In this document: piece by piece, positions 31,852 to 63,967 of the stretch | Layout of the letters: the number at the start of each line of letters is the position of its first letter | Position numbering within the stretch: position 1 is the first letter of the stretch | Origin: an uncultured Anaerolineales bacterium | GTDB lineage: Bacteria > Chloroflexota > Anaerolineae > UBA7937 | Reading direction: 5' to 3' | Length of the DNA: 64,000 nucleotides | NCBI GenBank assembly: GCA_964383935.1 | Contig: CAYLIE010000001.1 | Location: 11,073-75,072, forward strand | Program-made: the position numbers and the translations under genes | The notes under the pieces: generated by a model | Seen by the model: only the letters and a program-made list of their open reading frames with translations | Told to the model about the DNA's origin: nothing | The model's database searches: none

Positions 31852-32783
31852 CTTTCTTTATCGTCGTCTCCATACTCGTCGCCCTGCTGAGGGGAGGGGG
31901 TCTCCTACGGCTGGGTGAACTCCGTCTCCGCCACGGCTACCTCATCCTCTTGGGACTAGCCTTGCAGTTGTTCGTCTTCTCCCCTCTCGGGGCTCGCTGG
32001 GAGCCTTGGATCGGCTACCTCTATCCAACCTCCTTGGCTCTCCTTCTCCTGGCCGTTGCCCTTAATCGGGATCTTCCGGGGATCAGGCTCCTCGGTTTAG
32101 GGCTTTTTTTTAACCTCTTGGTGATAGCGGCCAACGGCGGCCTCATGCCTATCTCCGTCGAGGCTGCGCGTCGGGCGAGACTCTTCGACGTGATAGCCAC
32201 GCTACAGGCTACGGGCCGCCACAGGCATATGGCTCTTATGGATGAGGGGACCAAACTTTGGTTTCTGGGGGATACCATCGTCTTGGGGTACCCCTTGCCT
32301 TCGGCCCAGGTCTTCAGTCCCGGCGACATCCTGGTGGCTCTGGGCGCTTTCATCTTCCTGCAATGGGCGATGCTGGGCCCCAACTGGCTGCCCCGTTACC
32401 TCCAGGAAGGGAAGCCGGTCGCCTATCTTCTCTCCTTAGGCCAGACCTCCTGGGTCAAGGGGGCTGCCATATTCGGCCTAGGGCTGCTTTTGGGTTGGCT
32501 GATTATAGGATGGGTTCTATGGCCGGTGGAGTACTGCGATACCGATCCTCCCGACCTTCGGCGGAATCACCAGGAGGTCTATATCTCGTTGGTGGCCGAC
32601 TCCTTTGGCCTTAATGGGGACGTACAACTGGCCAGAGAGCGGCTGCGAGATTTTAACGAAGAGGAGATAGGGGATATTATCTTGACTCTCTTGGAGAGGC
32701 AGGAGGAGGATCTTGCCAAAAGCCAAAGGCTCCGCGATCTGGCTCAGGCTCTCGCCTTGTCTCTAGCCCCTGGTGGGGAGTAG
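31848..32783 (+). CDS. DUF5317-like integral membrane protein with cytoplasmic C-terminal extension
   Basis: ATGA overlap with the HD-GYP stop. Multi-TM N-terminal region. Such membrane proteins are commonly paired with c-di-GMP enzymes. Confidence 0.45.
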   Translation: MTFFIVVSILVALLRGGGLLRLGELRLRHGYLILLGLALQLFVFSPLGARWEPWIGYLYPTSLALLLLAVALNRDLPGIRLLGLGLFFNLLVIAANGGLMPISVEAARRARLFDVIATLQATGRHRHMALMDEGTKLWFLGDTIVLGYPLPSAQVFSPGDILVALGAFIFLQWAMLGPNWLPRYLQEGKPVAYLLSLGQTSWVKGAAIFGLGLLLGWLIIGWVLWPVEYCDTDPPDLRRNHQEVYISLVADSFGLNGDVQLARERLRDFNEEEIGDIILTLLERQEEDLAKSQRLRDLAQALALSLAPGGE

Positions 32784-34919
32784 TTTTTCCATTTGGGCGA
32801 AGCTGACCAGAAGCCTTTTGGGCTTCATCCCCACGAAGGCCACCACTACTTCCTCATCGTCCCCTGCCAACTTACTGGAGACGACTACCCCCTCTCCGAA
32901 TTGAGGGTGGCGGACTTTGTCGCCAGGATTGAACTGGCGCACTTCCACAGCCGCGGGACCCCTTGGAAGCCAAGTCGCGCGCTCATATTCGGTGCTTCCC
33001 CTCACTAACTGAGGGGGGATGTCGAGGAGGAAGCGGGAAGGGGTATTCACTTGGGAGAGGCCTCGCAAGGTGCGACGGAAGGTGTGGATCAGGTAAAGCC
33101 GTTCCTTGGCCCGGGTGATCCCCACGTAACAGAGGCGACGTTCTTCCTCCATCGCTTCCCGATCATCGAAGGAGCGGCTGTGAGGGAGGACCCCTTCCTC
33201 CAAGCCCACGATGAAGACCACCGGGAACTCCAGCCCTTTGGCCATGTGGAGGGTGAGGAAAGTGGGGGCGTTAGCCCGCTCATCATAGTTGTCTACATCG
33301 GAGACCAGAGCCACCTCTTCCAAGAAGGTCGTCAACCCCACCTGGGGAGCGAGATCGGCGTACTCGCTGGCTACGCTCCGCAACTCCATCACGTTATTCC
33401 ATCGCTCTTCGCCTTGCTCTGTGCCGTCCCTTACATACTCGGCGTATCCTGTCCTCTCCAAAATGAGATCGAAAAGTTCAAGGAGATCTAACCTCAGGCC
33501 GGCATCGACTAGCTCCTCTAGGAGATTGGCGAATCCTGAGAGGATGCGCTTACTGCGAGGGTGAAAGGGTGTCTCCTCTTTCTCCCGTCCTTCGGATAGC
33601 CGACCTAGGGCGGTGTGTATAGGGACCCCTAGCCGGTTAGACCACACCATAAGTTGCTCTAGAGTCTTTTTCCCTATAGCCCTGCGGGGCACATTGATGA
33701 TCCGTAACAGGCTAAGAGCGTCATAAGGGTTATGGACGAGGCGCAGGTAGGCGATGATATCCTTCACCTCCCGCCGCTCGTAGAACCTGGTGGCCCCCAC
33801 CAGACGGTAGGGCACGCCAGCCCGCACGAAGGCGTCCTCTAGGGCCCGAGATTGGGCGTTGGTACGATACATAACCGCGCAGTCGCCGAGATCGCATACC
33901 CCTCGTGCTTCCAACCGTTGTATCTCGCCCAGGACGTATTGGGCCTCCTCTTCCTCGTCGTAGGCCTCGATGATGGTGAGGGGGAGACCACACTCTTCCT
34001 CTGTCCAGAGCCTCTTCTCCACCCGCGCCTCATTTTTGGAGATGACCGCGTGGGCTGCGTCCAAGATGTTCTGGGTGGAGCGGTAGTTCTGTTCCAGGAG
34101 GATGATCTTCGCCTCTGGGAAGTCCTTCCGAAAACGGCGGACATTGCGGAAATCGGCCCCCCGCCAGGTGTAGATGCTCTGGTCCTCATCCCCTACTGCA
34201 AAGAGGTTCCGGTGCTCTAAGGTCAAGAGTTTCACCAGTTCATATTGAACCATATTTGTATCCTGGAATTCGTCCACCAGGACATGTTGGTAGCGCCTTC
34301 GGTACTTATCCAGAACATCTCCCTCATTTCGAAAAAGATCTACGGTCTTGGTGAGAAGGTCATCGAAATCTAGGGCGTTGTTTGTGGCCAAGAGTTCCTG
34401 ATAACGGTGGTAGACTCTCCTTGCTATCTCATGCCAGTAGGTGGGAGAGGGGAAAGCGGAAGGGGGGATCAGTTCGCACTTGGCGTGGGAGATGGCGGCC
34501 AGGAGCGCTCTGGGGCGATAGCTCTTCTTGTCGAGCCCTAATTCATCTATCGCTTCGGCTACTAGGTTAGCCTGGTCGTTCTCGTCATAGATGACAAAAC
34601 TTCTCTCTATCCCTGCTCGTTCGCTCTCCCGGCGGAGGATGCGGACACAGGTGGCGTGAAAAGTGCCTATCGTTATCTCCCGAAGCCCATGGCCCAGGAG
34701 TTGGAAGAGACGCTCTTTCATCTCTCGGGCCGCCTTATTGGTAAAGGTAACGGCCAAGAGGTGGTAGGGTTTTACGCCTCGCTCCTTGACCAGATAAGCC
34801 ACTCGATGAGTAAGCACCCGGGTCTTGCCGCTGCCCGGCCCCGCCACCACTAAGATGGGTCCCTCAGGGCCTTCTACAGCCTGGCGTTGAGCGGGGTTAA
34901 GACCTTCCAAGATATTCAT
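32763..34919 (-). CDS. pcrA: ATP-dependent DNA helicase PcrA/UvrD
   Basis: Motif I 'AGPGSGKTRVLTHRVAYLV', UvrD motifs throughout and a C-terminal Tudor-like tail. 718 aa. Confidence 0.85.
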   Translation of the reverse strand: MNILEGLNPAQRQAVEGPEGPILVVAGPGSGKTRVLTHRVAYLVKERGVKPYHLLAVTFTNKAAREMKERLFQLLGHGLREITIGTFHATCVRILRRESERAGIERSFVIYDENDQANLVAEAIDELGLDKKSYRPRALLAAISHAKCELIPPSAFPSPTYWHEIARRVYHRYQELLATNNALDFDDLLTKTVDLFRNEGDVLDKYRRRYQHVLVDEFQDTNMVQYELVKLLTLEHRNLFAVGDEDQSIYTWRGADFRNVRRFRKDFPEAKIILLEQNYRSTQNILDAAHAVISKNEARVEKRLWTEEECGLPLTIIEAYDEEEEAQYVLGEIQRLEARGVCDLGDCAVMYRTNAQSRALEDAFVRAGVPYRLVGATRFYERREVKDIIAYLRLVHNPYDALSLLRIINVPRRAIGKKTLEQLMVWSNRLGVPIHTALGRLSEGREKEETPFHPRSKRILSGFANLLEELVDAGLRLDLLELFDLILERTGYAEYVRDGTEQGEERWNNVMELRSVASEYADLAPQVGLTTFLEEVALVSDVDNYDERANAPTFLTLHMAKGLEFPVVFIVGLEEGVLPHSRSFDDREAMEEERRLCYVGITRAKERLYLIHTFRRTLRGLSQVNTPSRFLLDIPPQLVRGSTEYERATWLPRGPAAVEVRQFNPGDKVRHPQFGEGVVVSSKLAGDDEEVVVAFVGMKPKRLLVSFAQMEKLLPTRG

Positions 34920-50065: not shown

Positions 50066-51628
50066 CTAGTCGCATTTTATCTCGAATTTCTCCGCATTTT
50101 CTTTCAATATCCCGATTTCTCGGAAAAGCGGCATAAAAGCGAGCTTGGGTCTGAGGGCGACTAGCCTCTTTTGGACCGGATCGCAATAGACCGCCTCAAA
50201 GAGAGCAGAGAGAATCTCGCTCCTCTCTTTTTTGGTCGCACTTTGCCAGGCCATCCTCATTGTCTTCAATTGATCCGCCGTGATGTCAATCTTGGCTCTC
50301 GGGGGCGGATTCAAGTTAGCTAGGGCCGCTTCGACTTCCGCCTTGCCTCGCCGGAATTGCTCTTCGTCTATCAGAACTTCCAAATAGAGGCTCTTAAGCC
50401 TCTTCAGTTTCTCCTCTAGCCTCGCTCGTTCTTGCTCTACGTTCGTTGTCTGCTCCCTTGCATTGACCAATTCCTCTATGCGAGTTTGCCAGTCAGGGGG
50501 CAGTTCAAGTCTAGTGATAATCTGCCCGATTTGCTCCTCAAGTCCTGATTCGTGAACCCGCCATCGGGGAGCGGTACAAGGGATTTGCTTGAAGTATGAC
50601 ATACAACGGTAGAAACTGACCCCGCTGCGGCTAGTCTCGCCCGTCATAGCCTTACCGCAGCCCTCGCAGATAAGCATCCCCCGGAAGAGATAGGTGCGAA
50701 ACTTAGGAGTGAAAGTTCGTGCCCTCCTCCGGTTGCGAATGCGAATCTCCTGGCACCTGTCCCACGACTCTTGAGAGACAATGGCCTGTTGCTTGCCTGG
50801 GAACCTCTGGCCCTTGTGGGTTACGTAGCCGAGATAGATTGGGCTCGTGATGGCTTTCTTTACGGTATCTCCTATCCAGAGTCTTCTACCCCAGCGAGTA
50901 TTCATCTGATAGCCCAAACGAGTCAATTCACGCGCCACACTGTTGTAGGAATACTGCCCTGTGGCGTAGAGTTCAAAAAGCTTTATCACCCCTTCACTGT
51001 CCACAGGATGCACAATCGGAATCCGCCCATCTCCTTGATCTTCGTGGCCCAAGTTGGGGCAAAGATGGTCTCCGCAGTTCGAGCACAGGCCAAGGCAATA
51101 TCCGGTTGCTAGATTGCCGAGCCACAACCCTTCCCTGGCTCGTTGGCTGAGCCCCTTCTTGATCTCCTGGCCCAAGTTCTCCGAATACCATTGGGCTAGG
51201 GCTGCAAGAATGTGCATTTGCAGTCGGCCCTCGGGCCGGGTGTAGTCGAAACGCTCTTGGATCGACACAAAGCCGATACCGTGGTCCGCCAACTGCCCCA
51301 GGTAGGTGATCGTATCTCGGAGGCTGCGGCTGAAACGATCCAACTTGTGGATTACCAAGACATCAAAAAGGCCAGCCTCTGCGTCCTTCATCATCTGCTC
51401 GAACTGTGGACGCCGAGCTGACCTTCCTGAGAAGCCAGGGTCAAGGTATTCGGAGACTACTTGCCAGCCTTCGGACTCGCAATACTCCCGGCAGCGCCCT
51501 ATTTGGGCGTCAAGTGAATAGCCCTCGGTCTGCTCTTCAGTTGATACACGCGCGTAAAGAACAGCCCTCACGATTGCACCCCAGGCTATTCTACCCGGAA
51601 GGTTGCACCTTGTCAACCCCTTGGTCAA
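50066..51628 (-). CDS. large serine recombinase (resolvase/invertase N-domain + recombinase + zinc-ribbon)
   Basis: VLYARVSTEEQ (catalytic Ser), DRFSRS, LGYQMNTRWGRRLW recombinase domain and a CEGCGK zinc ribbon. TTG start at 51628 or GTG at 51571. Confidence 0.85.
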   Translation of the reverse strand: MTKGLTRCNLPGRIAWGAIVRAVLYARVSTEEQTEGYSLDAQIGRCREYCESEGWQVVSEYLDPGFSGRSARRPQFEQMMKDAEAGLFDVLVIHKLDRFSRSLRDTITYLGQLADHGIGFVSIQERFDYTRPEGRLQMHILAALAQWYSENLGQEIKKGLSQRAREGLWLGNLATGYCLGLCSNCGDHLCPNLGHEDQGDGRIPIVHPVDSEGVIKLFELYATGQYSYNSVARELTRLGYQMNTRWGRRLWIGDTVKKAITSPIYLGYVTHKGQRFPGKQQAIVSQESWDRCQEIRIRNRRRARTFTPKFRTYLFRGMLICEGCGKAMTGETSRSGVSFYRCMSYFKQIPCTAPRWRVHESGLEEQIGQIITRLELPPDWQTRIEELVNAREQTTNVEQERARLEEKLKRLKSLYLEVLIDEEQFRRGKAEVEAALANLNPPPRAKIDITADQLKTMRMAWQSATKKERSEILSALFEAVYCDPVQKRLVALRPKLAFMPLFREIGILKENAEKFEIKCD

Positions 51629-52698: not shown

Positions 52699-53150
52699 TC
52701 AACGTTTCTTCTCTGGAACTGCGCCTTTGTTGACGATGTCGGCATGATGAGTTGGCGCTCCAATGATTTTGTGGTCCACCTTGGTCATAATGATAGATTT
52801 CTTGCCAAGGACACGCTCTCGCATCGGGCCTACATGAAGATCTCGGTCACCTGAAAGTGATCGGCCATCTCCGCGAGGTCCATCCGTTGAGCGAAGCACG
52901 CCCTGGAACAGGTCTCGGGACATGGCCACTTCGGCCAGCTGGAACACCAGCCGCCGGGCGTGGCGCACCAGGCGACCCCCAACCTTGATCAATTTCACCT
53001 GCACGCTGCGGAGCGACCAGTCCCTTACGGCCCGAGGAAGCCCCACCCGCCGGAGGAAGTTGCCCAGGTTGTACCCCAGGATGAACAGGGCCAGCCGCGC
53101 TTGGTTGGCCAGATATCGGTGGCACGACAGCCCAGTCCACTTGAGGGCCT
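52699..53150 (-). mobile_element. DDE transposase C-terminal remnant (IS4/IS1380-like), N-terminally truncated
   Basis: Continuous minus-strand frame ALKWTGLSCHRYLANQARLALFILGYNLGNFLRRVGLPRAVRDWSLRSVQVKLIKVGGRLVRHARRLVFQLAEVAMSRDLF, the conserved C-terminal helix region of DDE_Tnp_1-type transposases. Stop codon immediately upstream, no catalytic domain. Confidence 0.6.
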
Positions 53151-53689: not shown

Positions 53690-53850
53690 GAGGGAGACAC
53701 GAACAAGAGATTTACGGCGTAAATTTCTTTGGTCCTGCTGCCTACCGGCCAGAGAGAGAGTGACGAGTTTTACGCCGTAAATCTCTCGGGGGCTCCTATT
53801 CGCCGTTGAGGGAGACACTGTGATAGGTTTTACGCCGTGAATCTTACATG
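53690..53850. repeat. three tandem roughly 58-60-bp imperfect direct repeats, each carrying a 13-15-bp palindrome TTTACG(G/C)CGTAAA
   Basis: Unit 1 agggagacacgaacaagagATTTACGGCGTAAATttc (palindrome 53710-24). Unit 2 ...gagTTTTACGCCGTAAATctc (53769-81). Unit 3 agggagacactgtgataggTTTTACGCCGTGAATctt (53829-41). Confidence 0.6.
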
Positions 53851-54215: not shown

Positions 54216-54317
54216 CTACGGGCCGTCTTTCTTCCGCTTCTTCCCAAAACTCAGGGCTAGAGCCATAAGGATGATGGCAACCACCATGCCGAGCAACAGG
54301 CCGGGGATAGTTGGAAT
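54216..54317 (-). CDS. small hydrophobic peptide with basic C-terminal tail (paralogue C1; type I toxin-like)
   Basis: Frame gives (I)PTIPGLLLGMVVAIILMALALSFGKKRKKDGP*. Synonymous changes relative to C2 at 58127-58216. AAGGAGGTG RBS 9 nt upstream of an ATT codon. Canonical ATG (MVVAIIL...) 10 codons in. Confidence 0.45.
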   Translation of the reverse strand: MPTIPGLLLGMVVAIILMALALSFGKKRKKDGP

Positions 54318-54970
54318 AGATCACCACCTCCTTACTACTTTTCGACTTTAGCAAAAGCGTGTCCGGCGGTCAAGGGTCAGTCTCAGACGGTTCGTCATTG
54401 TGGGGCCTGAAGGCGGCGGTGCACCGCGCCCACCCCCACGGGCCGGAGCCGAAGTCCCCGCTGGAAACCCGCTCCCGAGACAGAGGGCTACTTAGTAGAT
54501 CAATCTTCTCTTATAGGAGGATGAGCGGCGGCTTTGGCAAGCCTAGCAGAGGTCGAAAACAGCTTGCCGACAGCCGACTCGGAGCGGGCGGACTTTCGGC
54601 TCTGATGAGAGGAGGCCTCTCGCAGGGGGCGAGAAGGCGTCCATATCCCCCACCGCCGTCAACTTTTCGATGTCAAAGAGAGCGGATTTCGAAGGATATA
54701 TCCCAAGAGGGATTTATCCCCCCCGGTTTTCGGGGCTCTCCGGGCTTCTAGGAGGCCGACCGTGCTCAGGAAAGCACCCCGAGCTTGCTTAGGGTTCACT
54801 TGCCCCTGCGCTTCGCTCACGGGGTGCTGAAAACAACCCTCCGGCCTTCGGCGGGCAACTCCCCCTTCCCAGGCGGAGATGACGGGCTGTTCTCTCCTTC
54901 GCGCGCTTCTACCATTTGACTCCAATTCTAACTATGCTACAATACATGCAAAGCTATGGAGGGAAGGCGA

Positions 54971-56770
54971 ATGCACATCACCCACTTCAGGGCTAAGCAC
55001 TTTCGCTGCCTCTATGATACGGACTGGATAGCAATCCACGATTTGACCGTTCTGATCGGTGAGAACGATGGAGGCAAGACGGCAACGATTGATGCCCTTG
55101 AGATTCTGCTCACCATTAAGCCCCCCGACACAGAAGATTTTTCTTTCGTGCCAGGGAGCCAGGAGCAGCACGAACAGGAAATGGTTTTGGAGGCAAAATT
55201 CACCCTTGAGTCGAACGACGTTTCTGCGTTGCAGGAGTTCTGCAGGTACAGTAGCGAGCAGCTAATCATTCGTCGGGATTTCTCCCCGGATTCTGCTGGG
55301 CCATGGACATATAGAACGATGGTTCACGCTGATGAAAGGCTGTCTGCAGATCTGGCCGCCTATACCGTAGCTACACTCCGTGAGATAGCGGAGGAACACG
55401 GGATAGACGTCCCCTTGAGTCCAAAGGCCGACATCGTCGATGCTATCGAGACATGGCTCGCCACTCAGCCGTTGTTTGAGGGATACCGAGAGTTGCCGCG
55501 TGCCGCTCGCGACCTGCTTCCCCAGGTTCAAGTGTTCAGGTCAGCACAGGCACTTGACCCGCAGAGAGAGGTAGACGCTGTTCTCCGAACTGTCTTCGTT
55601 GCCGAGATAGATGGTGAAACATATCGGGGTAAACTGGGTGACATATCCGCTCAAATTGAAGCTAGCCTCAACGAGCGTGTGTCCAGGTTAACACCCGTCG
55701 TTCAAAAATATCGTCCTGAGATCACGGAAGTACGCGTGGATCCTCGTTTCGACTATTCGCGCGGGCTAGCCACGTCGCGCCTCCAACTCATCGGACAGGA
55801 TGGCCACCCCATAAGCCTTGACAAACGCGGAGAAGGCATCAAGCGCCAAGTGACACTGGCTGTCTACGAGTGGAATTCGGAGCTTCTAGCCGCTCGTCCG
55901 GAGGAAGGTGCCCGCCCTCTCCTCCTGGCTTTCGACGAACCCGATAGTCATCTCGACTATTACTCTCAGCGCAAGATATTTGAGATTATACGGAGTCTCG
56001 TCAAACCGGGGATTCAGATAGTCGTCTGCACCCACTCGCTTAATCTCATAAACCGCGTCCCCCTAACCAACATAAATCATTACTGCTTGGACGATCACTA
56101 TTGCACGCGGGTGACCGCTTTGCAGAGCGATGATCCCGCCACGCTTGAGTATTTCGTCGACGACATAGGCAAGAATATGGGCTTGGAAAACAGCCTCATG
56201 TTTCACGAGCGTTGTTTTCTCGTTGTGGAGGGCCCAAGTGAAATGAACGCTTTACCCCCGCTCTTTCGCGTTTGGCACGAGGACGGGCTCAGTCTAACAT
56301 CTGCTGGTATCCGGTTGCTGAACGGTCAGAACAACGTTGGAGCGAGGAATTTCGCCAAGTTCCTTAACGACAATAATCGCAATGTCGTCTTCATGCTCGA
56401 TTCGGATTCTCGAACAGATCCCACAGGCCGCGTCTTCTCTGAGGAAAGCCTTCGTCGCGCAGGTTTTGATATCGATCGCCAGGTCTTCTTCGTCGGAGAT
56501 AGGGAGTTCGAGGATGCGTTCAGTGACACGCTTTGGGCCAGAGTCGGCAATACTAGATGGCCTCCAGAAGACGGGCGACCTTGGCAACCGGATGATTTTT
56601 CAGGCCGCAGGTCCCAAGACAAGAAATTCTCCGATGGCCTTTGCGCCGCATTCCGAGCGTCCAAGCCCAAAATAGCTTATGAACTTGCGAAGCGTGTAGC
56701 CGACCCCACTGAGATCCCCGCTCAAATCCAACGGTGTTTTAAGCACGCACTGGCGTTGGCGAATTCCTAG
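54971..56770 (+). CDS. OLD-family ATP-dependent endonuclease (N-terminal AAA_15/21 ATPase + C-terminal TOPRIM)
   Basis: RBS GGAGGGAAGG. MHITHFRAKHFRC...IHDLTVLIGENDGGKTATIDALEIL (Walker A), LLLAFDEPDSHLD (Walker B), TOPRIM CFLVVEGPSEMNALPPLF...VVFMLDSD. Confidence 0.75.
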   Translation: MHITHFRAKHFRCLYDTDWIAIHDLTVLIGENDGGKTATIDALEILLTIKPPDTEDFSFVPGSQEQHEQEMVLEAKFTLESNDVSALQEFCRYSSEQLIIRRDFSPDSAGPWTYRTMVHADERLSADLAAYTVATLREIAEEHGIDVPLSPKADIVDAIETWLATQPLFEGYRELPRAARDLLPQVQVFRSAQALDPQREVDAVLRTVFVAEIDGETYRGKLGDISAQIEASLNERVSRLTPVVQKYRPEITEVRVDPRFDYSRGLATSRLQLIGQDGHPISLDKRGEGIKRQVTLAVYEWNSELLAARPEEGARPLLLAFDEPDSHLDYYSQRKIFEIIRSLVKPGIQIVVCTHSLNLINRVPLTNINHYCLDDHYCTRVTALQSDDPATLEYFVDDIGKNMGLENSLMFHERCFLVVEGPSEMNALPPLFRVWHEDGLSLTSAGIRLLNGQNNVGARNFAKFLNDNNRNVVFMLDSDSRTDPTGRVFSEESLRRAGFDIDRQVFFVGDREFEDAFSDTLWARVGNTRWPPEDGRPWQPDDFSGRRSQDKKFSDGLCAAFRASKPKIAYELAKRVADPTEIPAQIQRCFKHALALANS

Positions 56771-56778
56771 GAGGGGCC

Positions 56779-57039
56779 ATGAACAGAAACGAAATCGTCG
56801 ACACCATAAGACGTGCCGGAAGAGAAAAAACAATTCTCTGGATACGAGCATACGAAGCCGATGGCTCAATCGAACCCAGAGAGGTTGAGCCCTATAGCTT
56901 TCGTCCATCAGGCACCACGGAGTGTTTCTTCTTTTACTGCCTGCTCCACAAGGGAACTCGTAACTTCCTGGTTGACAAGATCATTGAAGTGCGACTCACC
57001 GACAAGCGCTTTGAACTGCGCTGGCCCATAGAACTATAG
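56779..57039 (+). CDS. stand-alone WYL-domain protein coupled to the OLD nuclease gene
   Basis: ATG 8 nt after the OLD stop, with RBS overlapping the stop. EVEPYSFRPSGTTECFFFYCLLHKGTRNFLVDKIIEV matches the WYL ligand-sensing fold. Confidence 0.6.
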   Translation: MNRNEIVDTIRRAGREKTILWIRAYEADGSIEPREVEPYSFRPSGTTECFFFYCLLHKGTRNFLVDKIIEVRLTDKRFELRWPIEL

Positions 57040-57261
57040 ACGTTCATTCAGCTCGAATAGCCAGTCGGCCAAGAGACACGTTTCTTCGTCAAATGACACT
57101 TAGACGAACAAAAAGCCCGTGGGCCCGCGATCGCTTTCCGATCCTTTCAAACCTTCTCATCTTGCCAGAGCCAGTAAAACCAGGCCGGGTGAAGTGGACG
57201 GCTTCGCCTTTTAAGAATTGACCCTCTCGCTCTTTTCAAAGACTTTGCAGGAAATAAAAAC

Positions 57262-57286
57262 CGCACCCCGAAGGGTGCGTTCTGTT
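57262..57286. terminator. bidirectional rho-independent terminator between the OLD-WYL operon and the NYN gene
   Basis: AAATAAAAAC-CGCACCC-cgaa-GGGTGCG-TTCTGTT. The minus strand reads hairpin then GTTTTTATTT. Confidence 0.7.
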
Positions 57287-57345
57287 AAACCAATATATTT
57301 ATATCACAGCATGACATTTTTGTCAAGTTTTTCAAGTAGGATCAC

Positions 57346-57888
57346 TTATCTTCGTTGAACCGTTTGTTGTATATCCTCAAGGAATCGGTATTCTTGGCAG
57401 GCAAGCTTTAGCTCCCAAGAGAGGGTTTTGCGAGAAGAGAAAACCACCAGCGTTTTCCCCAAATCCCTCAGGCGCTTTCCAAGATCGGCAAAGTCACTGT
57501 CCCCCGAGAACAAAATGACGCAATCCAAATCCGCCCTCTCTAGAAGAATATCAGCGGTCATCTCCACATCGAAATTGGCCTTGTATACAAAGGTGTATCC
57601 ATACAACTTCCAATAGGGATGGTCCTTGTCAATGGCGATCTTTTTGAGAGGTTTAGTGATGGTGGTAAAGCCGATCTTATCCAAATACCGCAAATATTTG
57701 GGCATTTTGCGATCGCCCTTCTTTAGGCCGGTGTAGTAGCGAAACTCCAGCACGTCAAACTCTTGTTGAACAAGGGCTTTGACCTTCTCCCAGTCGATAC
57801 TCCAGCCCAGCTTGCGCTGGGTGTAGAACATGTTGGCGCCGTCAATATATACTTTTGCTCTGGGTTTTTCCCGAGAAAGATGGGCCAT
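57346..57888 (-). CDS. NYN-domain (LabA-like, PIN-fold) putative RNase
   Basis: KVYIDGANMFY...DCVILFSGDSDFADL NYN motifs. Leaderless arrangement, TGCTATAAT -10 ending 6 nt before ATG. Confidence 0.7.
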   Translation of the reverse strand: MAHLSREKPRAKVYIDGANMFYTQRKLGWSIDWEKVKALVQQEFDVLEFRYYTGLKKGDRKMPKYLRYLDKIGFTTITKPLKKIAIDKDHPYWKLYGYTFVYKANFDVEMTADILLERADLDCVILFSGDSDFADLGKRLRDLGKTLVVFSSRKTLSWELKLACQEYRFLEDIQQTVQRR

Positions 57889-58057
57889 GGGTCTATTATA
57901 GCACCCAGCCCCTTACTTCAACAAGTTGACTAGCGAGGAGCACCCCGGGGGTTCTAAGGCAGAAGTAGAAGCCCAAGCCAAAATTTCAAAATCAACCCAA
58001 CCGATCTGCCACTTGCCACCACGACGGCGCGCCTCTATAGAGACTTAACACCACGAT

Positions 58058-58082
58058 GGCATGCTTGTATATACAGCATGCC
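58058..58082. repeat. 25-bp near-perfect palindrome between small peptide C2 and the NYN promoter
   Basis: GGCATGCT-TGTATATACA-GCATGCC (one-base bulge). Confidence 0.45.
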
Positions 58083-58126
58083 ACAGACGGTCAAGCGCGC
58101 TCACGAAAGCCACCGGCCCCGCCCAT

Positions 58127-58216
58127 CTACTTTCGTTTCCTGCCGATAGACAGTGCCAGCCAGATCAGTATTGTGGAAAGCAGCATGCCCAGCAACAGTC
58201 CAGGGATAGTTGGAAT
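58127..58216 (-). CDS. small hydrophobic peptide with basic tail (paralogue C2)
   Basis: (I)PTIPGLLLGMLLSTILIWLALSIGRKRK*. GGAAGGAAG RBS 9 nt upstream of ATT. First 10 codons identical to C1 at protein level with synonymous nucleotide changes. Confidence 0.45.
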   Translation of the reverse strand: MPTIPGLLLGMLLSTILIWLALSIGRKRK

Positions 58217-58383
58217 GAATCATCACTTCCTTCCTCTCTCATCGTAGCATAGAGAAAACGGGCCGATCAATATGAAGAGGTGTTCGCAACTAGGGCAGGA
58301 AAGTCAGGGATGGGACCACCGGAGGAGACCACCTCGGCCCACTGCGAATTGATCATTGACAGGGGTATCCTCAATTTGCTACT

Positions 58384-59166
58384 GTGAGAATGGAGGGGAT
58401 GCCCGGAGCTATCCATTGGGCTTCTGGAGGGCGCACCAGCCATGCAATGTGCCACAACCAGCCGCCCGGGGAAGCCGAATCTGTTCTCATGAAGGAAAAG
58501 CAACCCGTTCACCACACATCTGACGAACACGCTGTGTCATCGGAGCAGAGGAAAGAATATCCCCTCGGCAGAAGCATCGTTAGACGGCTCAAGAAAACAC
58601 TCAACGAAGAGTGGGACTCTTGGCTGGTGGAGGAAGACGAGGATACCTTCAAGACCCTCTACCTGACAGAGCGACGGGTGTGCATCCCCGAACATCTGCT
58701 TAGCGGCGAGATCATGGAGGACATCATGAGTCTTTTCTACTACCCCCTCTCCACCGTCAGGGAGGAGCTCAAGGAGCGCACAGAGGCAAAGGAGTTCATC
58801 TCTATCTTTGTCCAACCCTCATACACGGACACCTCTTTTGCCGTGATGGTGGCCGGAGAAAAAGCTCTGTTGACCGTCTCTGACAAGGCGTGGAACTTCT
58901 ACTGGGATAGTGAAGAGGAGATGGTGAAGGAGCTGGAGAGTTGGTATCAGATTGCTGAAGCCAGGCTCAAGGGCGGACCCAGGCTCTTCGGCGGTGATGC
59001 CTGGGCACTTGAGACCCTGCTACGGCAGGTGAGGGAAGAGGACATTCCCAGGCTGCAAGAGGAAAGCCGCTGGCGGGCTGACGAACTCCGCAGAGCCCTT
59101 GATCTTCTCTCCCGCTTGCTTGAAGAGCCACGGGATAGAGAAGAATCGCTCCAGGACCTCAGCTAG
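58384..59166 (+). CDS. hypothetical protein (acidic, helical)
   Basis: 260-aa ORF in the island. Start uncertain (internal ATGs at 58443 and 58492). No family recognised. Confidence 0.4.
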   Translation: MRMEGMPGAIHWASGGRTSHAMCHNQPPGEAESVLMKEKQPVHHTSDEHAVSSEQRKEYPLGRSIVRRLKKTLNEEWDSWLVEEDEDTFKTLYLTERRVCIPEHLLSGEIMEDIMSLFYYPLSTVREELKERTEAKEFISIFVQPSYTDTSFAVMVAGEKALLTVSDKAWNFYWDSEEEMVKELESWYQIAEARLKGGPRLFGGDAWALETLLRQVREEDIPRLQEESRWRADELRRALDLLSRLLEEPRDREESLQDLS

Positions 59167-59261
59167 GGGAGAGCAGGGAACAGAGGAGACCCCAGGCTCC
59201 CAGGAACTTGTTCCTTTGCAGGGCGAGAAAGGCCGCGAGCTACTTATACTATTATATATAT

Positions 59262-59822
59262 ATGAAGGAACGTGAACCCGATTTCGAAAACGAGAAGATA
59301 CGGGCCTGGCTGATAGGGCCTTCCTTAGAGGGTCCCGCGGAAAAGGAGCAAGATCTTGAAGGTCTCGAGAAAGACCCAACTGTCATAACCATTGATGAGG
59401 AGACCGAAGAGATATTCGAGAGTCGCGCCTATCACTTCAGGCCTGGCCCGGAGACCTTCTCTTTTCTCCTTGGCTCGCTAGCCAAGACGATGGGTGAGAA
59501 TCTTGCTGAGATCCCTCCGGAGGAGCTTGTGGATCATGTGATGGACATGATCGAAGGCACTGGTATCAAGTTCCTGGCCAAGCGGCGCAAGGAGGATGGT
59601 CGAATCACCTTTATTTTGGTGGGGATCAGTTGCCATTCACGGTCGCTCCTCGATCGCCAGGAATTGGTCAAGGAGGCCGGTTATCGCAAGGCGGTCCAGG
59701 AGTTTGAAGAGCTCCCCCTTTCAAGGGCGATCCTTTCGCCACCGGCAGTGGTCACCCTTGAGGAGTGGCGCCGCTATGCTGAGGAAGGTCCCCTCTCAAG
59801 AAGCGAACGCGAGGGAGAATAG
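59262..59822 (+). CDS. hypothetical protein
   Basis: MKEREPDFENEKIRAWLIG.... 186 aa from ATG 59262; track ORF starts at 59208. No family recognised. Confidence 0.4.
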   Translation: MKEREPDFENEKIRAWLIGPSLEGPAEKEQDLEGLEKDPTVITIDEETEEIFESRAYHFRPGPETFSFLLGSLAKTMGENLAEIPPEELVDHVMDMIEGTGIKFLAKRRKEDGRITFILVGISCHSRSLLDRQELVKEAGYRKAVQEFEELPLSRAILSPPAVVTLEEWRRYAEEGPLSRSEREGE

Positions 59823-59874: not shown

Positions 59875-59982
59875 CTACCTGGGCTTTCTCTTCCGTCCCT
59901 TCTCAACCATGACCGGAAGAGCCAGTAACCATATGAAGACCGTGATTCCTACAAGAAGCCATTCTAGAGGCGTCAAGGCCAT
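59875..59982 (-). CDS. small hydrophobic peptide with basic tail (paralogue C3, canonical ATG)
   Basis: AAGGAGGTG RBS, 9 nt, then ATG. MALTPLEWLLVGITVFIWLLALPVMVEKGRKRKPR*. Same RBS spacing and architecture as C1 and C2. Confidence 0.55.
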   Translation of the reverse strand: MALTPLEWLLVGITVFIWLLALPVMVEKGRKRKPR

Positions 59983-60501
59983 ATGTTCAATCACCTCCTT
60001 CGGAGAAAGAGACAACTCATCAAGTATCCAGATATAAACAGGGTCAGTCCTATGAGTGTCACTCGAAAGGAAAACCCTCGCTCGGAAAGAATCTGTCCGA
60101 AGACGAGGGCTCCAATCGCTATATTTGCCAGATCGACTAACTTGTCCGCAGAAAGCCTTCGATGATCCTCGTTGAAGCGGATAACCATGCACTCTGATGT
60201 TAGCACATTGAGCGAGATGCTGTCAATACCACAATACGGAGTATCCTAGGCGAAGCATAGACAGCCGACCTGCACATAGCGATCTGGTCTACATTTCCCC
60301 CCTTTACCGCCTTTTCCTTATTTTGTTTTCCCTCGCGCCCGCGCGAAAGAGGGGATTGAGAGAGCTGGGGGAGGGTAGACGATATGCCTATGTGCAATCC
60401 GATTCCACTGACATCCGCTAATGAGAAATGCTCAAGGTGTCCCTGAGTAATAGTCTGATCAGGATGGAGCTTATGCGCCTTTGTATGACTCTTGGTAATA
60501 G

Positions 60502-60595: not shown

Positions 60596-61321
60596 ATGCA
60601 GGTACCAGAGTGGCTGGGGCATCTGCAAGAGGCTGAAACCGCGTACGTGCTGTTTTCGGGCGGCAAAGACAGTTCGGCGGCCCTGGTGTACACCAAGGAG
60701 CTGAGTGACGAGTTTTGCGAATCTCCTCGATTAGTAGCGGTCCATGTGGATACGACGGCGGGACTTCCTGCTGTTGAAGAGTTCTCAAAGCAGTTCTGTA
60801 GTCATGTTGGCGTGCCTCTTACGGTTTTGAGGCCTGAAGAGGACTATTTTAGTCTAGTGAAGCGTTGGGGCGTGCCGCGCCCTAGGGCGAGGTGGTGTTG
60901 CTTCCATCTGAAAATAGAGCCGATCAAGTTGTTCCTTGATGGGCAGAAGAATTACGTGGTCTTGGACGGGATGCGAAGGCAGGAATCACGGAAGCGCTCC
61001 CAGTATCCGCCCACCTACGATCATCCCCATTTTGGGCTGGTAATTCACCCAATTATAGATTGGACAAAGGACAGAGTTGAAGATTTCATTGCCTCAAGGG
61101 ACTTGCCTATCAATCCAGCGTACGAAATGGGATTCAGTTCCTGGGAGTGCTGGTGTGGTGTGTTCAAGCGAAAGTGTGAATTTGAGAAACTGCGGGATGT
61201 GGATAGGGACTTCTTCATGAAACTGGTGGAACTGGAGGATTCCCTTACAAGTGGGTATGCTTACGCCTATTTTGATGGCAAACCCTTCTACCTAAAGGGT
61301 CTACTACAGGAGAAAGATTGA
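60596..61321 (+). CDS. PP-loop ATP pyrophosphatase of the PAPS-reductase/DndC-SspD-like family with Cys cluster
   Basis: PP-loop 'VLFSGGKDSSAAL'. Cys-rich segments RARWCCFH and WECWCGVFKRKCEF suggest an Fe-S site. 241 aa. Confidence 0.65.
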   Translation: MQVPEWLGHLQEAETAYVLFSGGKDSSAALVYTKELSDEFCESPRLVAVHVDTTAGLPAVEEFSKQFCSHVGVPLTVLRPEEDYFSLVKRWGVPRPRARWCCFHLKIEPIKLFLDGQKNYVVLDGMRRQESRKRSQYPPTYDHPHFGLVIHPIIDWTKDRVEDFIASRDLPINPAYEMGFSSWECWCGVFKRKCEFEKLRDVDRDFFMKLVELEDSLTSGYAYAYFDGKPFYLKGLLQEKD

Positions 61322-61322
61322 T

Positions 61323-61859
61323 TTGCAAGTGGAAGTTGTGGCAAACCAGCATCATCGTGGAGTGATAGAACGCTTATTGGAAGGAAGGCCGTTCCGCGTG
61401 CGGCTGTACGCACTACACGTTCATGATGTCCAACTGATCAGCTCTTCGCTAGGATTGCGCTTAATCAGGCTATTGGGGTCAGATTGTACAGTAACGGTAG
61501 CTTTTGGAGACAGGCTTTGGGACACGGAGACGGGCAGCCCCAGGAACGAGTTATGTAGGCAAGTCCTCGACTTCTTGAAGGAGATCGAGGATTATGGGGC
61601 AAACGTGTGGCACGTACCAGATCCCTTGCTACACGCAAAAGTCCTATATGTTGAGGAAGAAATGCCGGGTGCCGGGCGAACGAGTCGTGCGTTGGTGAGT
61701 AGCGCGAACTTCACGGAGACGGGTATTGGCGGTAGCAACTTTGAACTGGGGATCGGTTTCGAAGACTTAGAGGCGTGCCCAATCCTGGCACAGAGCATAA
61801 AGAAGTTCACCGATGGAGTACTCGGTGCAGCCAGACCTATACCTTGGGAAGGAGTTTAG
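61323..61859 (+). CDS. phospholipase D (HKD)-like nuclease-family protein
   Basis: Single HKD-like motif HAKVLYVEEE...GRTSRALVSSANFTETG. Start 2 nt after the previous stop. 178 aa. Confidence 0.55.
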   Translation: MQVEVVANQHHRGVIERLLEGRPFRVRLYALHVHDVQLISSSLGLRLIRLLGSDCTVTVAFGDRLWDTETGSPRNELCRQVLDFLKEIEDYGANVWHVPDPLLHAKVLYVEEEMPGAGRTSRALVSSANFTETGIGGSNFELGIGFEDLEACPILAQSIKKFTDGVLGAARPIPWEGV

Positions 61860-62978
61860 ATGATGTGGTTCGAGAGGTACAACTTCAAAGAAGATCCCTA
61901 CGTGGTGCGCGATCCATTCGAGACTTCACTAGAGTTCATCCAATGGGATAGGGAGGACCTCGTACACAAGAAGAATCTTGACTTTTTCATAAGGGATGTC
62001 GTAGGTGGCTATCGCGTTGGATTGAAGGTGTATGGCGCCAGTGGCAGTGGGAAAACCTGGTTGCTGAGATATCTCCAGAAAGAATTGGTGCGGCAGCTTG
62101 GTGACGAGGTAGTTGTTCTCTATGGAAAGATTCCGCGGTTTGATCCCACGTTCTGGGTCTTCTATGACATGGTAGTGAAGGGTTGGCTCGACCATCGAAG
62201 TAGAATCCTAGAGACCATCGCAAGGACAGCCGGTGACGTGGAATCCGCATGGCAGGAGCACATAGGAGACGCTGACTTGGCAAGCTGTCTATGGAGGCTA
62301 AAGTACAAGGCTGACGAAAAGGTAACAATCAGCCTTTGTGAGCATTGGTTAAGGGGCACAAAGATTCCGGTTCGTGACCTGAGCCAAGTCGGTGCAACGG
62401 CTTCACTGGATCGCGACTACTCGAGGTATTCCGTCCTTGTCCAATTATTGGACCTAGCCTTGCAGGCTTTCGGCACATGCGTCCTCATGGTTGATGAGCT
62501 TGAGAATGCTCCTGGGTCACTCGCTCGGGCGCTCGGCGATGCCCTCAGAGACCTCTTGGATAGCTTCTCCGAGCGATTCGCATTGGCATGCAGCTACACA
62601 GCTCAAGCGGCGGACGAGTTGCTCGATAGGGGATACGGAGAGTTCTTGTTCAGGCGCTTGGAGTGGCACGTAAAGCTTGATCCAATCACGCCTGACAACG
62701 CTCCTGGCGTTTTTAGGGTCCATCATGGCACGTACCGAAAGCCTGGACATGAGGGCGATCAATTGGCTCCCTTCACGGAGCAAGCACTACGCAGGTTGTT
62801 GAGGGAAATGGAGCCAGAAAAGTGGTATCCGGGGTTCATATTCCCTAATTGTGGAGTCTTAGGGCGTCTAGCGAGTGAAGCAAGTGCTGATACGATAGAC
62901 GAGACTTTTGTGGAGACGACGGCGTTTCAGAAGCGGGAAGTCTTTCCATACCTGGGGCCAGAGTCCAGACTTATATAG
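61860..62978 (+). CDS. P-loop NTPase (AAA/ORC-like) of unknown family
   Basis: ATG immediately after the PLD stop with an AAGGAG RBS. Walker A 'VYGASGSGKTWLLRYL' and Walker B 'CVLMVDELEN'. 372 aa. Confidence 0.55.
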   Translation: MMWFERYNFKEDPYVVRDPFETSLEFIQWDREDLVHKKNLDFFIRDVVGGYRVGLKVYGASGSGKTWLLRYLQKELVRQLGDEVVVLYGKIPRFDPTFWVFYDMVVKGWLDHRSRILETIARTAGDVESAWQEHIGDADLASCLWRLKYKADEKVTISLCEHWLRGTKIPVRDLSQVGATASLDRDYSRYSVLVQLLDLALQAFGTCVLMVDELENAPGSLARALGDALRDLLDSFSERFALACSYTAQAADELLDRGYGEFLFRRLEWHVKLDPITPDNAPGVFRVHHGTYRKPGHEGDQLAPFTEQALRRLLREMEPEKWYPGFIFPNCGVLGRLASEASADTIDETFVETTAFQKREVFPYLGPESRLI

Positions 62979-63967
62979 GAGAGCTTGCCGTCCCGACCAG
63001 CTATGGCTGACTGCACTATGCCTTCATTCGCCAATCGCCTAATTAGCCGCCGCAAAGTCTTCTCTTCGAGTACGCAGTACCGTTCTATCAGTAGGCTCAT
63101 ACAGACATATACACTGATGGAACGTACGTCAGACAAGCGCAGCTGTGGTCTCTCAAAGAGGGCGTAGGCCTTACGGAACAGCTCGAGAAAACGCGCGCGG
63201 CTAGGCTTGTGCTCATATCGAAAGTCAGGGAGACATCCAGGCGCGTCACCTACGTAGGCAGATGCTGCCCAATAGATCTTCTCCTGCAGTTCAGCGCCCT
63301 CCTTGGAGAAGAGACCGAGCAGCTTCTGTGCCATGCTTGTTAACTGAAGCCGTTGAGGATTCACGAGGCCCAGTTGCTGCAACCAAAATCGGAAACAATC
63401 AAAGTTGTTCCGCACTTTCCTTGGTGGGGAGTCTGGCTGCCTAGAGAAGTGCAAGGACAAATACGCCTTGTCCTCCCAGGTGCTACAGGTGCTATTGGAC
63501 AAGACCCTTTGGCCGTAAGACGTGATGACTCGTTCTATGGGTCCGCCTGCATTCTGAGAGATGGCTCCTAGAGCAGAACTGAACTGCAACGGGAGGTACA
63601 GGGCAAGAGCGCGAAAATAGAATACCTTTTCTGCAAGTTCAAGGGTTTTGTTTGACTTTGCAGGCACCAGAGCGCAAAGCGCTTTTCCCTCGCTGGAAAG
63701 CACATAGCCGCCATTCTCGCGCGTCACTAGTCCGAGTGATTCCATGGCGCGCAAATGCCTCTTGATCACCTTGACATTCGTCAGACCCAGCTCTTTCTGA
63801 ATCAAGGGCACAAGCATATCAGTTTCCATAAGTCCTTCGGGGCGCATGATGTGGCAAATTCCCGTGAAGCGGTGCAATTGCCCCTCTGACGTGGTCAGGT
63901 CTGCCAGGAATCCAGTGCGCGAGACTTCCATGCGATTGGTATTCGCTTCCTTATCTACTATGTCCAT
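62927..63967 (-). CDS. hypothetical protein with winged-helix (MarR/HxlR-like) DNA-binding region
   Basis: LIQKELGLTNVKVIKRHLRAMESLGLVTRENGGYVLSSEGKAL. 346 aa. Convergent with the NTPase gene, ends overlapping by about 50 nt. Confidence 0.4.
   Translation of the reverse strand: MDIVDKEANTNRMEVSRTGFLADLTTSEGQLHRFTGICHIMRPEGLMETDMLVPLIQKELGLTNVKVIKRHLRAMESLGLVTRENGGYVLSSEGKALCALVPAKSNKTLELAEKVFYFRALALYLPLQFSSALGAISQNAGGPIERVITSYGQRVLSNSTCSTWEDKAYLSLHFSRQPDSPPRKVRNNFDCFRFWLQQLGLVNPQRLQLTSMAQKLLGLFSKEGAELQEKIYWAASAYVGDAPGCLPDFRYEHKPSRARFLELFRKAYALFERPQLRLSDVRSISVYVCMSLLIERYCVLEEKTLRRLIRRLANEGIVQSAIAGRDGKLSYISLDSGPRYGKTSRF

Follow-up and report, generated by a model that had tools for sequence, protein, structure and literature searches.

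The window analysed here is a stretch of 64,000 nucleotides from an uncultured Anaerolineales bacterium of the Chloroflexota (GTDB lineage Anaerolineae, UBA7937; assembly GCA_964383935.1, contig CAYLIE010000001.1, positions 11,073 to 75,072 of the forward strand). At ~54.95-57.06 kb it carries a gene for an OLD-family nuclease followed directly by a gene for a stand-alone WYL-domain protein. Comparison with other genomes indicates that the functional unit is this OLD-WYL operon, which appears to move horizontally as a unit, and the sequences suggest a so far undescribed form of a known type of anti-virus system. An initial annotation of the window, made from its letters alone, had proposed a single larger cassette in which OLD and WYL were joined by a convergent NYN RNase and bracketed by two small membrane peptides; the comparative data leave only OLD and WYL. 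The elements of the operon are as follows.

54916-54943, plus strand: promoter-like site TTGACT-16-TGnTACAAT just upstream of OLD, predicted (consensus scan 10/12, extended -10).
54971-56770, plus strand: OLD-family nuclease gene, N-terminal ABC ATPase and C-terminal TOPRIM, 599 amino acids (Pfam, PADLOC, fold).
56768-56781, plus strand: junction of OLD stop, Shine-Dalgarno sequence and WYL start, TAGGAGGGGCCATG (read from the sequence).
56779-57039, plus strand: stand-alone WYL-domain gene, 86 amino acids, without helix-turn-helix (HTH) and without WCX (Pfam, AF2, Foldseek).

The first gene encodes a genuine OLD-family ATPase-TOPRIM protein with an intact catalytic motif set. Its start is most likely the ATG at 54971, which has GGAGG 7 nt upstream and gives a protein of the same length as database protein P0001 (599 residues); starting instead from the ATG at 54956 would yield 604 residues (open reading frame (ORF) 54956-56770). 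The ATPase contains Walker A GENDGGKT, Walker B DEPD (within DEPDSHLD) and the H-loop CTHS, the TOPRIM domain contains the Glu in VVEG and DSD as its DxD motif, and K36, D322/E323, H355, E420/G421 and D477/D479 are invariant across 25 homologues. Pfam recognized AAA_15 (6e-22), AAA_21 and OLD-like_TOPRIM (2e-5; PF20469, 25.4 bits, cut-off 23.2), while the AriA, GajA and Old models of PADLOC matched at ~1e-20 to 1e-22. Searched against the PDB, the alignment profile of OLD found Thermus scotoductus OLD first (6p74, class 1, 4e-15), followed by Rad50, PtuA and GajA. The AlphaFold (AF2) model, with a predicted local distance difference test score (pLDDT) of 86, retrieved 6p74 as the top Foldseek match over its full length (E=1.8e-16 over 651 columns) and then GajA 8x5i, 8u7i and 8sm3. 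Relative to solved OLDs the model reached a template modelling score (TM-score) of only ~0.5, the orientation of the domains differing, and when the structures of the two were aligned only 14% of residues were identical to 6p74. Motifs, Pfam, PADLOC and fold all agree on the ATPase-TOPRIM identity given in the initial annotation, and the protein does not belong to a housekeeping RecF/SbcC clade. NCBIfam assigned a specific name to none of OLD, WYL and NYN.

The second gene is coupled to the first, as originally annotated: WYL starts 8 nt past the TAG stop of OLD, and its ribosome binding site AGGAGG overlaps that stop. The protein matches Pfam WYL (PF13280) with 28.2 bits (cut-off 21.8), and in its AF2 model (pLDDT 93) a single helix precedes a barrel of five strands. 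Foldseek aligned this model to the WYL domains of PafBC, BrxR, CapW and DriD with TM-scores of 0.75-0.80, the matches including the CapW and DriD structures bound to single-stranded DNA (ssDNA; 9c5g and 7tzv). Profile alignments place the invariant R61 of the family on the RxF-motif Arg of PafBC and BrxR. CapW and DriD contact ssDNA via conserved residues on the WYL surface (PMC11662680) and, by analogy, the window protein probably binds ssDNA as well. The WYL domain spans all 86 residues end to end. Because it has no HTH the protein does not look like a transcription factor, and without both HTH and WCX it cannot act as BrxR or CapW do.

Two scans addressed whether the pair recurs. The OLD alignment was run against one genome per species, giving 257 relatives from which 80 loci were fetched, and the WYL alignment was used for a reverse scan of metagenome contigs that yielded 42 loci. 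In the closest relative, a Chloroflexota metagenome-assembled genome (MAG; locus L002), OLD is 69% identical and WYL lies directly downstream. A close WYL homologue likewise follows OLD in a Bathyarchaeia locus (L003, OLD 42%) and in a Bacillota locus (L005, OLD 41%, WYL 53%), and together with the window the arrangement was seen in L002, L003, L005, L082, L084, L126, L127 and L128. Where WYL is at least 67% identical to that of the window, OLD ends -21 to +33 nt from the WYL start in 8/8 assessable loci, i.e. those with enough sequence upstream of WYL. More divergent WYL genes adjoin OLD in L050 and L081, and three further WYL homologues, looked up singly, also follow OLD genes; in L013 a 105-residue ORF beside OLD has a WYL-like motif pattern by eye only, below both the WYL profile and Pfam WYL. 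Within the WYL scan an OLD-type ATPase-TOPRIM gene was the commonest single neighbour (11/42 loci). Small WYL genes were found in both gene orders beside at least five divergent OLD clades, 17-70% identical to the window OLD, according to a rough neighbour-joining tree (BLOSUM distances, 588 columns, no reference sequences).

Translated comparison (tblastx) of the surrounding island with L002 showed similarity confined to 54950-57057, which is OLD plus WYL, and the flanks are unrelated even between these closest relatives. Since similarity to L002 is limited to the two genes and the pair is kept elsewhere, the inherited and transferred unit is a two-gene operon, a pairing well supported by comparative genomics. 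Its distribution across phyla is patchy and takes in both bacteria and archaea. The initial annotation had named a lack of conservation of WYL beside OLD as grounds for abandoning the idea; the pair is found across phyla. In L084 and L126 the WYL protein is 67-70% identical to that of the window and OLD only ~30%, indicating that the small protein is under much tighter constraint than the enzyme. Such constraint is more easily reconciled with the sensing of a universal ligand than with that of a variable phage protein. Separately, in an actinobacterial MAG the slot after OLD is occupied not by WYL but by a 70-residue KTSC-domain gene with an ATGA overlap with the OLD stop (L010 7851-8060), an indication that one small partner gene can stand in for another there.

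The classes of OLD are set by genetic context: class 1 stands alone, class 2 has GajB, class 3 a retron reverse transcriptase, class 4 is split and class 5 has an archaeal membrane partner (PMC10568477, PMC12796447). Like the class 1 proteins P2 Old, TsOLD (6p74) and Vibrio cholerae OLD, the window OLD is a fused ABC ATPase and TOPRIM of ~600 residues, and it also has no helicase, reverse transcriptase or split-TOPRIM partner. The class 1 architecture assigned initially is borne out by its best solved relative; it does not extend to context, because class 1 consists of single genes without a conserved partner (PMC10568477), whereas many members of the window clade have a coupled WYL. Gabija resembles the pair in combining an OLD effector with a second protein that engages nucleic acid, and GajA is close both in PADLOC (~1e-22) and as the second-best fold match. 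However, the partner here is an 86-residue WYL domain instead of a superfamily 1 helicase, and no GajB occurs here or in related loci, so membership of Gabija was rejected. An ORF domain scan found no UvrD-like helicase within 5 kb of OLD; the only UvrD-like gene in the window is, as annotated, a housekeeping-like PcrA 20 kb away (32763-34919, with a PcrA/UvrD tudor domain). Retron (class 3) membership was rejected because the neighbouring ORFs include no reverse transcriptase and Rfam gave no match, and PARIS (class 4) because ATPase and TOPRIM lie in one 599-residue polypeptide and not in split AriA/AriB. The class 5 membrane partner is not present beside the window OLD. Since the partners of classes 2-5 are absent and "no conserved partner" does not describe it, OLD-WYL would be a further OLD class by the partner-based convention of the field. 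In agreement with the initial annotation, which did not recognize the combination, no description of the pair was found in the searchable literature.

The WYL protein also has relatives among known regulators. BrxR/CapW and PafBC/DriD share its fold (TM-score ~0.8), occur in defence-island contexts and have ssDNA as a known ligand (PMC11662680), but they are dimeric transcription factors with HTH and WCX, whereas the window protein is WYL alone. A likeness of another kind is offered by WYL1, reportedly presented by Yan et al. in 2018 (cited in PMC6563490) as an accessory protein of type VI-D CRISPR-Cas13d. WYL1 modulates its nuclease effector directly and not via transcription; it is larger, with a ribbon-helix-helix domain and an RNA-guided RNase as partner, and we liken the two by description only. 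To our knowledge, all other defence-associated WYL proteins characterized so far are transcription factors.

We favour, with moderate confidence, a mechanism in which OLD is the nuclease effector and WYL a stoichiometric, coupled sensor subunit that binds single-stranded nucleic acid and thereby gates OLD. P2 Old, TsOLD, GajA and a Vibrio class 1 OLD nick or degrade DNA, and the ABC ATPase and TOPRIM of the window protein would do the same. Translational coupling would cause WYL to be made in fixed proportion to OLD, and WYL would most likely serve as a ligand-sensing subunit acting in trans. By analogy with every solved WYL-ligand complex, its ligand would be a short single-stranded nucleic acid, such as intermediates of phage or plasmid replication or recombination, or products of DNA damage; ligand-bound WYL would then switch OLD on or release it. 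The sequences directly show the domain identities, the complete catalytic motifs, the coupling, the conservation and mobility of the pair, and the defence-type neighbours and fusions of the WYL family; the anti-phage role, physical contact between OLD and WYL, ssDNA as the ligand and the sign of the regulation are inferred. Defence by OLD systems, whether of one gene or of several, is established (PMC10568477, PMC12392090).

The company that WYL keeps elsewhere bears on this mechanism. A WYL profile search of 1.84 billion cluster representatives (50% identity) returned 966 clusters at E<=1e-3, of which 100 reached E<=1e-10, and most of the best matches were WYL-only proteins of 77-112 residues. 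Besides OLD, the neighbours of WYL-only genes include GmrSD, AlwI, SIR2_2, two HEPN families, DUF6119 and a STAND NTPase, together with AAA_13 and SMC-like ATPases, DNA methylases, integrases and a relaxase. A Pfam scan of the 10 longest WYL-containing matches among the 150 listed identified fusions to TIR (P0277, P0287), AbiEii (P0392) and a Mu-type portal (P0422). On account of the defence neighbours and the TIR and AbiEii fusions, the WYL-only family appears to be a portable domain for sensing or regulation that is added to immune effectors. We tentatively raise the broader possibility, which we consider less than even, that WYL mini-proteins of ~80-110 residues are widespread alarm subunits acting in trans, which would sense single-stranded nucleic acid and gate unrelated effectors post-translationally (OLD, GmrSD, AlwI, SIR2, HEPN; fused in TIR and AbiEii), OLD-WYL being the commonest pairing and a new OLD class. 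The portal fusion was unexpected and viral: P0422 (614 residues) is a phage Mu-type portal protein with a C-terminal WYL of the same subfamily at residues 524-592. An OLD-WYL fusion was considered as Rosetta-stone evidence and discarded, the long matches being TIR, AbiEii or Mu-portal fusions or having no second domain.

Several observations weigh against the proposal that WYL is the sensor of OLD. The OLD clade of the window has WYL in only ~5/13 genome loci, and from the relatives that lack it OLD evidently can work alone, in which case WYL may be an accessory. The 10 longest of the 150 listed WYL matches contained no OLD-WYL fusion in the Pfam scan, and the window WYL had no tblastn match in plasmid and phage collections. 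Position 49 is Cys in the window protein and Arg or Lys in most homologues, and it may be the site of a ligand-contacting Arg. Finally, distant actinobacterial OLD genes lie beside sbcCD, which leaves room for a DNA-repair reading.

The OLD relatives without WYL suit an explanation in which OLD is a self-sufficient class 1 enzyme, silenced by WYL acting as an antitoxin- or immunity-like inhibitor or as an RNA-binding autoregulator. Class 1 OLDs are reported to be able to defend alone (PMC12392090). A small, downstream and translationally coupled gene would be in keeping with such an inhibitor, the WYL domain is fused to AbiEii, the toxin of a type IV toxin-antitoxin system, and its Sm-like fold could bind RNA. 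However, known WYL domains are ligand sensors, the TIR fusion and restriction-enzyme neighbours suit a sensor better, and the very high conservation of WYL would be unusual for an inhibitor co-evolving with a fast-evolving partner; moreover, we know of no WYL antitoxin. We regard silencing of OLD by WYL as unlikely.

The actinobacterial genes lead to a different explanation, that OLD-WYL is an accessory of DNA damage and repair, with WYL sensing ssDNA as PafBC and DriD do and OLD processing DNA ends. By sequence, the WYL profile matches PafBC best, and a role outside defence is described for Cran1, an OLD from archaea (PMC12796447). Distant OLD homologues of Streptomyces and other Actinomycetes, ~32% identical, lie ~370 nt upstream of sbcD-sbcC (among L015-L080, e.g. 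L063 8198-9373). These Streptomyces loci are often near chromosome ends, and in two complete genomes (NZ_CP109551, NZ_CP108867) the OLD/sbcCD locus is duplicated at both ends as part of the terminal inverted repeats. The patchy occurrence of OLD-WYL and its unrelated flanks stand against a repair role, as do the recombinase, insertion sequence (IS) fragment and other defence-like genes of the island described below, and the partners of the WYL family are restriction enzymes, SIR2, HEPN and TIR. We consider a repair function quite improbable, and retain the view that WYL gates OLD as an immune effector.

Beyond the operon, the cassette of the initial annotation comprised the following additional elements, to which we add a third peptide gene.

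57262-57279, no strand assigned: GC-rich hairpin between OLD-WYL and NYN (terminator scan).
57346-57888, minus strand: NYN/LabA-like gene, 180 amino acids, convergent with OLD-WYL; judged to be a neighbour outside the module (Pfam NYN).
54216-54317, minus strand: pep1, small membrane peptide IPTIPGLLLGMVVAIILMALALSFGKKRKKDGP, probable ATT start; not part of the module (direct repeat, translation, substitution pattern).
58127-58216, minus strand: pep2, paralogue of pep1, IPTIPGLLLGMLLSTILIWLALSIGRKRK; not part of the module (direct repeat, translation).
59875-59982, minus strand: pep3, third similar peptide, to the right of the proposed cassette.

In that cassette OLD, WYL and the NYN RNase would act together, with two membrane peptides bracketing the unit. 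In its favour, the five genes lie next to one another, the hairpin is common to OLD-WYL and NYN, and the unit has a copy of a 106-nt direct repeat at either side. The NYN identity is clear (PF01936, 2.8e-24). Upstream of the gene on the minus strand (57889-57915), an extended -10 element TGnTATAAT ends 6 nt before the ATG and no Shine-Dalgarno sequence is present, so that the leaderless mRNA proposed initially is plausible from the sequence. The proposed bidirectional terminator stands in part: the hairpin is a strong terminator for the minus strand, but on the plus strand its T-tract is weak. As for membership, NYN is absent from 122/122 comparison loci, these being the OLD or WYL loci L002-L123. 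Its homologues, ~60% identical across Patescibacteria and Anaerolineae and highly conserved as a family in Patescibacteria, adjoin rubrerythrin, isochorismatase, NUDIX and M23 peptidase genes, i.e. housekeeping-type, non-defence contexts, and contig L124 has only NYN in common with the window (77% nucleotide identity). NYN was accordingly rejected as a third component.

The flanking peptide genes reported initially are present. Positions 54231-54336 and 58130-58235 form a direct repeat of 106 nt with 73% identity (62-nt core 82%, E=3e-11), and both copies encode minus-strand peptides of the form (S/F)IPTIPGLLLGM...KKRKK. The differences between copies are mostly synonymous and mainly at third codon positions, including an AGT/TCT serine switch, indicating that pep1 and pep2 are real paralogous genes. 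In both, an in-frame TGA lies one codon before a conserved ATT and a Shine-Dalgarno sequence 7-8 nt upstream (AAGGAGG for pep1, which also has a promoter-like site at 54373-54345), making ATT the probable start. The third gene, pep3, comes after a 71-residue ORF with two transmembrane helices (59991-60206) whose TGA stop overlaps the pep3 Shine-Dalgarno sequence. All three peptides have fewer than 60 residues, a single transmembrane helix and a charged K/R tail, as do type I toxin-like peptides, a group that is further defined by a cis-antisense RNA, and they are the only such ORFs in six frames of the window.

The role of the peptides as brackets did not hold up. Pep1, pep2 and pep3 lie divergently upstream of plus-strand OLD-WYL, of two ORFs named ORF260 and ORF204, and of a PAPS-reductase/PLD/ATPase trio, respectively, which places all three between successive cassettes of a larger island. 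The pep1/pep2 peptides occur in no other fetched locus, public genomes not having been searched for them. As module borders or attachment (att) sites they were rejected, the similarity being limited to the coding part and Shine-Dalgarno sequence and lacking an identical core, and pep3 lying elsewhere; they are paralogous genes and not scars of recombination. With NYN and the peptides missing from the other loci, NYN found alone in L124 and among housekeeping-type genes in Patescibacteria, synteny with L002 ending at the very borders of OLD and WYL, and the third peptide lying outside the cassette, we consider it very improbable that the five genes act as one.

The remaining features of this island are listed here.

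50066-51628: large serine recombinase.
52702-53046: DDE transposase C-terminal fragment (IS fragment).
58384-59166, plus strand: ORF260 (260 amino acids), acidic-rich, between pep2 and pep3.
59208-59822, plus strand: ORF204 (204 amino acids), acidic-rich, adjoining ORF260, between pep2 and pep3.
60596-62978, plus strand: tight trio of PAPS-reductase-like, PLD-like (DrmC-like) and AAA_16 ATPase genes.
62927-63967, minus strand: Csa3-like winged HTH gene, divergent from the trio.

OLD-WYL sits within a recombinase-associated island of defence-like cassettes. Past ~50 kb the order from left to right is serine recombinase, transposase fragment, OLD-WYL, NYN, the two ORFs without match and the trio with the winged HTH gene; the recombinase and transposase remnant are both where the initial annotation had seen them. 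Its low-GC island is apparent as a fall in base composition from ~50 kb onward, although the drop is modest (GC ~0.50-0.56 compared with ~0.54-0.59 upstream). ORF260 and ORF204 had no match in Pfam, NCBIfam or PADLOC. The PAPS-reductase-like protein of the trio has BrxP and SspD as its best PADLOC matches (1e-18 to 1e-19), and the trio looks like a second, unclassified defence-like cassette of the same island.

Two non-coding stretches adjoin pep1. To its left, at 53694-53844, a repeat of ~33 nt occurs three times at a spacing of 58-60 nt; each copy is centred on a palindrome, TTTACGGCGTAAA / TTTACGCCGTAAA, with one arm pair 100% complementary, and these repeats may be operators, iterons or elements resembling miniature inverted-repeat transposable elements. 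The gap between pep1 and OLD (54337-54955, ~600 nt) has a GC content of ~0.58 and is apparently non-coding. A retron-like or other non-coding RNA was considered for this gap and rejected: an Rfam search gave no match even at E<=1, the fold z-scores of the 570 nt upstream of OLD were weak (-1.7 and -2.5), and tblastx showed that the gap is not kept in L002.

If WYL is a conserved partner of OLD, class 1-like OLDs would gain a concrete and testable way of sensing infection, with ssDNA or some other small nucleic acid as the ligand. The part played by WYL domains in immunity would then reach beyond control of transcription to direct control of an effector. At 86 and 599 residues, the WYL and OLD proteins are small enough for biochemical and structural study.

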